Shown here one piece after another: positions 18,015 through 18,620 of a stretch of DNA of 64,000 nt. This DNA is from Eledone cirrhosa. Taxonomy: Eukaryota. The first letter of the stretch is position 1. Each line of letters begins with the position of its first letter. Both the position numbers and the translations under genes were made by a program. The DNA lies in the NCBI GenBank assembly GCA_964016885.1, contig OZ024759.1, positions 7,502,001-7,566,000 on the forward strand, written 5' to 3'. The notes beneath the pieces are model-generated. The model made no database searches and was not told the origin of the DNA. It was given only the letters and a program-made list of their open reading frames with translations.

Positions 18015-18620
18015 TTTGTTTTGCGAGGTTTTTTATATGAAATCGTGTGTCGAAACAAATATTGTTATACTTGGGGAGGGTCATATTGTTGTAATATTGC
18101 CAGAAATAATAACAGAACACACTCACTGTTTGGTTGGTTTTCGCTTCTGTATCTTTTATATCTCCACAGTTAACTCATTTGGTCCTCAATGTTTATCATT
18201 GACTGACCAACGGTCAAAAATACAGATATAATATAGATATAAACACACATATATATAGTCTAACAAAGTTCTTTCGTTGCACATCTGCAACATCATCAGT
18301 GGTACTATTATGTTCCTCCTGTTGTATTGTATGTCTACGCCATTTTGCAGATGTGCAACGAAAGAACTTTGTTAGACTATATATATATGTGTTTATATCT
18401 ATATTATATCTGTATTTTTGACCTTTGGTCAGTCAATGATAAACATTAAGGACCAAATGAGTTAACTGTGGAGATATAAAAGGTACAGAAGCGAAAACCA
18501 ACCAAACAGTGAGTGTGTTCTGTTATTATTTCTGGCAATATTACAACAATATGACCCTCCCCAAGTATAACAATATTTGTTTCGACACACGATTTCATAT
18601 AAAAAACCTCGCAAAACAAA
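18015..18620. mobile_element. Foldback element, 276-bp inverted arms with 54-bp spacer, in a TA run
   Basis: 18015-18290 is the reverse complement of 18345-18620 with about 4 mismatches by eye. Confidence 0.93.
18255..18308 (-). ncRNA. Type-I hammerhead-ribozyme-like motif
   Basis: Minus strand: atagtacca CTGATGA t GTTGCA gatg TGCAAC GAAA gaactt|tgttagactat; perfect 6-bp stem II, minimal stem III, imperfect stem I. Confidence 0.6.

Follow-up and report, generated by a model that had tools for sequence, protein, structure and literature searches.

Among the retroelement ribozymes described so far, the closest to the motif analyzed here are the minimal hammerheads of Penelope-like elements (PLEs), for which a type-I consensus has been published and covariation within families has already been noted (Cervera and de la Pena, 2014; PMC4209133). 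For a lizard Penelope element, cutting by the hammerhead was seen in vitro, but elements with a mutated hammerhead could still insert in vitro, and none of the reads terminated at the cut site (PMC11167929). The in vivo relevance of PLE hammerheads is thus at issue, given their poor cutting in vitro and their being dispensable for insertion in one reconstituted system. Statements on these and the other cited papers refer to the portions of their text covered here.

The motif under study lies near 18 kb of the window, by which we mean the whole stretch of 64,000 nucleotides of Eledone cirrhosa DNA that was analyzed (contig OZ024759.1, positions 7,502,001 to 7,566,000). Its parent resembles Neptune and Nematis (Craig et al., 2021; PMC8557442) in having an RT followed by a C-terminal GIY-YIG domain, a CX2-5CxxC linker (here CX4CxxC), partial tandems, inverted 5'-truncated copies, (TA)n targets, and an optional tail. 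With PAc Poseidon of Anolis (Frangieh et al., 2024; PMC11167929) it shares a hammerhead near the junction of pseudo-LTR (pLTR) and ORF and copies that end shortly into the ORF, but PAc Poseidon is cut 26 nt after the start codon, whereas the cut predicted here lies about 180 nt upstream of the first ATG. Non-LTR retrozymes also carry type-I hammerheads predicted to work as dimers and are PLE-linked (bioRxiv 10.64898/2026.07.22.740005); they are short non-coding tandem units, whereas the present family, which has a coding, autonomous parent and in the window a foldback copy, falls outside that class. Compared with the minimal PLE hammerheads of PMC4209133, helix III has 2 bp and a loop that is non-palindromic AA in families A-C and AU in the youngest family, and the extra nucleotide of family C is G where the consensus has H. 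The supplement text of that paper contains no octopus entry, and G-U intermediate subfamilies are undescribed in the portions covered; the literature outside subscription journals yielded no study of the present family or of such intermediates in a retroelement ribozyme. Hammerheads in PLEs are already known, and the present family is an additional member. What makes it a rare case is that G-U intermediates of compensatory change are visible as amplified lineages and not as reconstructions.

The parent element is present in more than 20,000 copies in the genome; a DNA search of the 3.0-Gb assembly returned 2,499 candidates, of which 40 were scored, with identities of 94-97%. Copies have one common 3' end, after which comes (TA)n or a short tail, and varying 5' ends, often with an inverted arm that begins at a different position from copy to copy. 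Upstream in family copies lie RT (YVDD) and GIY-YIG frames. In one full element (L235), a 1,217-aa frame with the motifs YVDD and VVYSIRC...YIGET, from which the endonuclease was named, stands between two direct repeats of 1,744 bp that are 97% alike and each hold the hammerhead motif, 4,133 bp apart; elsewhere, on C1, four units follow one another in tandem at a spacing of about 4,146 bp. The linker motif ahead of GIY-YIG reads CTNRKCVIC, and among 91 relatives the closest protein with a name comes from Octopus vulgaris (68%). Pfam gave RVT_1 below threshold (E 5e-4) and no match to GIY-YIG, and the full ORF was without match. Judged by its predicted protein and repeats, the element is Penelope-like (EN+), with RT and C-terminal GIY-YIG in a single ORF and pseudo-LTRs that arise from partial tandems, and its feature list, including the CX2-5CxxC linker and microsatellite targets, would place it with the Neptune type (PMC8557442).

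Family D is very young and abundant, with intact frames of 1,000-1,200 aa and tandem units (L241, L235), and an asparagine-rich insert of (AAT/AAC)n precedes the RT in one Penelope ORF (L235:1546-5196, minus strand). Behind another copy (L064), directly 3' of the element, a second open frame resembles the start of another Penelope-type ORF, which we take to be Naiad-like.

On the minus strand, the 18-kb motif runs from CA (18301-18300) through CTGATGA (18299-18293), an extra T (18292), GTTGCA (18291-18286), the loop GATG, TGCAAC (18281-18276), GAAA (18275-18272), GAAC, and TT (18267-18266) to TG (18265-18264) (Table 1). It has what the core of the minimal PLE hammerheads comprises, namely CUGANGA, GAAA, UH, the G10.1-C11.1 pair, and one extra nucleotide behind A9. 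The base at H17 varies among subfamilies (U, C or A). Helix I near the core has 2-3 bp, its third pair being present in 5 of 12 representatives. Rfam gave no hammerhead match up to E 10 for 18240-18345, nor is a hammerhead among the 150 matches listed of 229 for the window; the lowest-energy fold of the monomer is not the hammerhead, and single-copy folding is weak, with z of -1.8 for the 18-kb stretch and -1.5 for the 31.7-kb stretch, neither of them unusual. The agreement with the published type-I consensus (PMC4209133) supports the identification made in the sequence-only reading, that the motif is a hammerhead, here assigned to the minimal kind of a PLE, with cleavage as a prediction.

Table 1. 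Hammerhead motifs in the window and the elements that carry them (window coordinates)
Feature	Position	Strand	Basis or remark
Minimal type-I hammerhead motif, extended stem I (ATAGT/ACTAT distal, CA/TG proximal)	18255..18308	-	Sequence and consensus in the covered portions of PMC4209133
Core CUGAUGA (C3-A9)	18293..18299	-	Sequence; invariant core; extra unpaired U at 18292 next to it
Stem II GTTGCA/TGCAAC, loop GATG (derived TG/CA state)	18276..18291	-	
GAAA, 2-bp helix III with AA loop, U16.1, H17	18266..18275	-	Register inferred
Predicted cut of the 18-kb motif	between 18266 and 18265	-	
Left arm: 3' end of Penelope-like element (pseudo-LTR and first ORF codons, ATG at 18084), ending in (TA)n	18014..18345	-	
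Right arm: inverted 5'-truncated copy without CTGATGA, extra T and G10.1	18345..18621	+	
Broken hammerhead of older subfamily (CA/TG stem; C3 to U, A15.1 to G, 9-nt loop)	31659..31701	+	
Older Penelope foldback fragment (inverted 3' end, then direct pLTR piece)	31444..31826	.	
Helitron-derived repeat carrying the Penelope fragment	31369..32570, up to 33900	+	Common to 24/29 relatives
Rep/helicase remnants in the Helitron-derived repeat	about 31868-32523		Best PDB match Helraiser, E 1.4e-14

What stands at 18 kb is a dead truncated insertion. The arms of its foldback (18014-18621) differ at 4 places and overlap by 2 nt, and in a transcript spanning both, the motif is predicted to be hidden within a long duplex. 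The right arm does start two bases past CTGATGA, at 18345, so that the core stands in the left arm alone, as had been read from the sequence; the start site is nonetheless unremarkable, since the inverted arms of other copies begin at many positions.

Exact patterns holding the core gave 2,162 matches for lineages A and B (reversed control 0, so well beyond chance), 14,265 for family C, and 9,214 for family D (controls 0). Among 12 representatives, hand-chosen so that each subfamily type supplies one, none of the 13 core positions varies, compared with 11 of 25 others (p 0.004); the variable positions are N7, the extra nucleotide, four stem II bases, loop II, loop 3, 16.2, and H17. Families A and C have 648 of 861 ORF nucleotides identical, and in their pLTRs good alignment, (TA)n aside, is limited to the ORF start and the hammerhead (39 nt, 82%). 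Similarity in DNA or protein led to families A, B, and D, and the motif to family C, with a pattern that demanded the core, so that some ascertainment remains. Within family C (L203-L222), two subfamilies were noticed in which loop II (GAATG or GAGTG) is linked with H17 (U or A).

The comparison from which the sequence-only reading had started is that between the 18-kb motif and a relative at 31.7 kb, which on the plus strand reads TTGAAGA (31661-31667), T, GTCACA (31669-31674), a 9-nt loop, TGTGAC (31684-31689), GAAG (31690-31693), GAAC, TT, and TG. Alignments show the two elements to be homologous, with 79% over 142 nt and 89% over 53 nt, and the double changes reported in stem II are real: pairs 3 and 4 differ on both sides, being U-A and G-C at 18 kb and C-G and A-U at 31.7 kb. 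They amount to four single transitions in the ancestry of the 18-kb lineage; two of these fall at CpG. At C3 and A15.1, the 31.7-kb copy stands apart from each of the other 12 representatives; among its 25 relatives with a parsed core, TTGA recurs in 3 and GAAG in 13. Flanking DNA beyond the Penelope part is common to 24 of 29 relatives, which means that this stem and loop were copied as Helitron-derived DNA and say nothing about selection there; the cargo region has 4,053 genome candidates, and the repeat is non-autonomous, with a broken frame. The 31.7-kb fragment is one that spread as Helitron cargo, its core decaying and its loop lengthened while the ancestral stem was preserved. Selection on RNA structure, which had been deduced from these two copies, therefore draws nothing from the pair, one member of which is Helitron-borne with a broken core, and finds its support in the family-wide comparison.

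That comparison follows stem II through its states, which we write as bases 3-4 of each arm. In the ORF trees, the outgroup family C and old lineage-A copies carry CA/TG and the 18-kb family and family D carry TG/CA; judging from these sequences, CA/TG is the ancestral stem state. Subfamilies occur in the paired states CA/TG, CG/TG, CG/CG, TG/CG, and TG/CA. The trees (a flank tree with 88 of 115 rows kept, and ORF-end trees with 36 of 48 usable rows, 245 in total, and with 35 rows) fix both ends of the series, not the order between them. Stem II is fully paired in most copies, the point on which the sequence-only reading had made its proposal depend: of 30, 19 are Watson-Crick, 4 wobble, and 7 mismatched, and two further sets are paired in 18 of 20 and in 13 of 14 plus 1 wobble. 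All 6 pairs hold in 13 chosen representatives, and 2 of the 6 pairs show changes on both sides. In young copies, such pairing follows from shared ancestry.

Intermediate states occur as well. A hand count among the matches listed (100 of 195, from C1 to C6:100 Mb) gave 34 CG/TG, 37 TG/CG, 12 TG/TG, and 17 CG/CG, and a second pattern, with all 85 matches counted by hand, 30 CG/CG, 12 CA/CG, 19 CG/CA, and 24 CA/CA; the mismatched copies inside C1 to C6:100 Mb are 8 CA/CG, 2 CG/CA, and 4 CA/CA. Single-step states in this part of the genome are thus wobble in 71 and mismatched in 10 copies (hand counts). Over the whole genome, wobble copies of stem II number 165 and mismatched ones, with CA/CA among them, 55, a ratio less favorable to selection (p 0.03 against control). 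At three control CpGs in the same copies, we found 327 CG, 41 TG, and 26 CA; because this decay is mild and two-sided, the 34 and 37 wobble copies are not derivable from 17 CG/CG. CG/TG copies differ from CA/TG copies in two flank markers (17/18 vs 3/14; 14/16 vs 1/13), and since they own these markers they are not single-copy mutants of CA/TG. TG/CG likewise differs from old TG/CA at a flank marker (18/26 vs 5/28) and at a further marker (15/31 vs 1/17) is intermediate between CG/CG and TG/CA. From these markers, both G-U forms were likely source elements. A neutral simulation with a CpG boost gave at most 1.2e-4 for two compensated pairs, as a test chosen post hoc. Against this, only two pairs changed, which leaves few independent events, and 179 of 500 shuffles reached two such pairs.

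We consider it probable that the motif is a minimal hammerhead in a Penelope pseudo-LTR whose core and stem II were kept, likely by selection on source elements, as two of the pairs were replaced through successive single-base changes. Read-through or tandem transcripts would bring two motifs together, which could then pair through the short helix III as a dimer; cleavage would likely be confined to this form and take place after H17, freeing a unit RNA that begins about 180 nt upstream of the first ATG. Source elements with a sound stem would have left most descendants, with selection as the presumed cause. Under the dimer model of PMC4209133, folding predictions give the dimer helix III with GAAC 4 pairs and two A-A oppositions, the AA loop 3 of families A-C not being palindromic, whereas with GAUU, in the youngest family, the dimer helix would pair fully with 6 pairs, its predicted energy going from -2.8 to -5.0 kcal/mol. 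On a later branch of family D, loop 3, 16.2, and H17 were observed to have changed together, with full pairing of the dimer helix III as the predicted result. A bolder reading, to which we give slightly less than an even chance, takes the copies as a copy-by-copy fossil record of a ribozyme stem under selection, in which G-U forms replicated as source elements, mismatches stayed minor, and the youngest and most active family rebuilt its helix III into a dimer interface that pairs throughout; if true, it would mean that cleavage by the Penelope hammerhead matters for transposition in vivo. The thousands of copies also constitute a natural variant series for ranking activity against evolutionary success, with five paired stem states as well as mismatched ones, helix III in two forms, and, as a control, the broken copy carried by a Helitron.

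The exchange could also have come about in a real Penelope hammerhead by mutation bias, through CpG decay combined with hairpin-templated correction by template switching, a process that can repair stems (PMC8794818). We judge this unlikely, in spite of the CpG context of two of the four stem changes and of the higher rate in stem II (4 changes, vs 7 differences in about 250 flank columns), as the G-U half-way states are amplified lineages with their own markers, the control CpGs decay both ways (67 of about 400), young copies seldom show T-to-C at the first site (4 CG/CA among 9,214 family-D matches), and the fixed core is left unexplained. TG-to-CA flips do recur in single copies: one true family-D copy is CA/CA, beside three that are CG/CA, and in two foldbacks one arm is TG/CA and the opposite arm CA/CA, so that the two-base flip recurs without selection and hairpin-templated mutation is still viable. 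A fold retained for a function different from cleavage, for instance binding of the element protein, translation, or promoter function of the pLTR, would accord with the weakness of helices I and III here, with the poor in vitro activity of minimal hammerheads (PMC4209133), and with insertion in vitro that is independent of cleavage (PMC11167929); it is improbable, however, because the invariant positions are exactly those of the catalytic core while H17 differs among subfamilies in the way noted above. That the motif is the DNA hairpin of a foldback DNA transposon or a Helitron end, like a hammerhead by chance, might have been suspected from the two window copies, both foldbacks without ORF and one in a Helitron remnant, and from the silence of Rfam. 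This idea is largely refuted by the motif's place in both direct repeats of full elements, and the single fixed 3' end with variable 5' ends and inverted arms, together with the RT and endonuclease upstream, makes it hardly credible.

Some results speak against selection on the hammerhead, the reading we prefer. Among the CA/CA and CG/CA copies, 37 of 43 lie beyond C6:100 Mb, on small chromosomes and contigs, unlike the wobble states. They (L255-L291) have mixed flanks, in which no private marker was found, and ordinary CpG decay, too little to explain them. The flanks of CG/CA look as early as those of TG/CG and would suit an early stage in the lineage leading to TG/CA, and one of the flank markers is at odds with a wobble route via TG/CG; the route of the second pair to TG/CA may, on these flanks, have passed through a C-A mismatch. 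Several other accounts were set aside. A private source lineage for CA/CA or CG/CA has no marker, and simple recombination at the loop disagrees with the markers upstream. Relaxed pairing at pair 2 (206 uncompensated matches) concerns about 1% of the large families and fits the decay of dead copies. An ADAR-type A-to-G or a C-to-T bias behind the wobble states was rejected, the ORF changes of the source lineages being unbiased (27 A>G to 16 T>C, with an expected share of 0.71, and 8 C>T to 11 G>A) and the flanks differing from the parent pools; an edit may still have been the origin of the very first step. Three sequencing contig runs of unspecified kind contained family-D variants, without ends or joints, and are uninformative on expression. 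Apart from the Penelope and Helitron copies, the window holds at 35892-60425 a 24.5-kb array of about 760 copies of a 33-bp unit (91% matches) with an 11-bp substructure, and in other places arrays with units of 99, 23, 25, and 27 bp.
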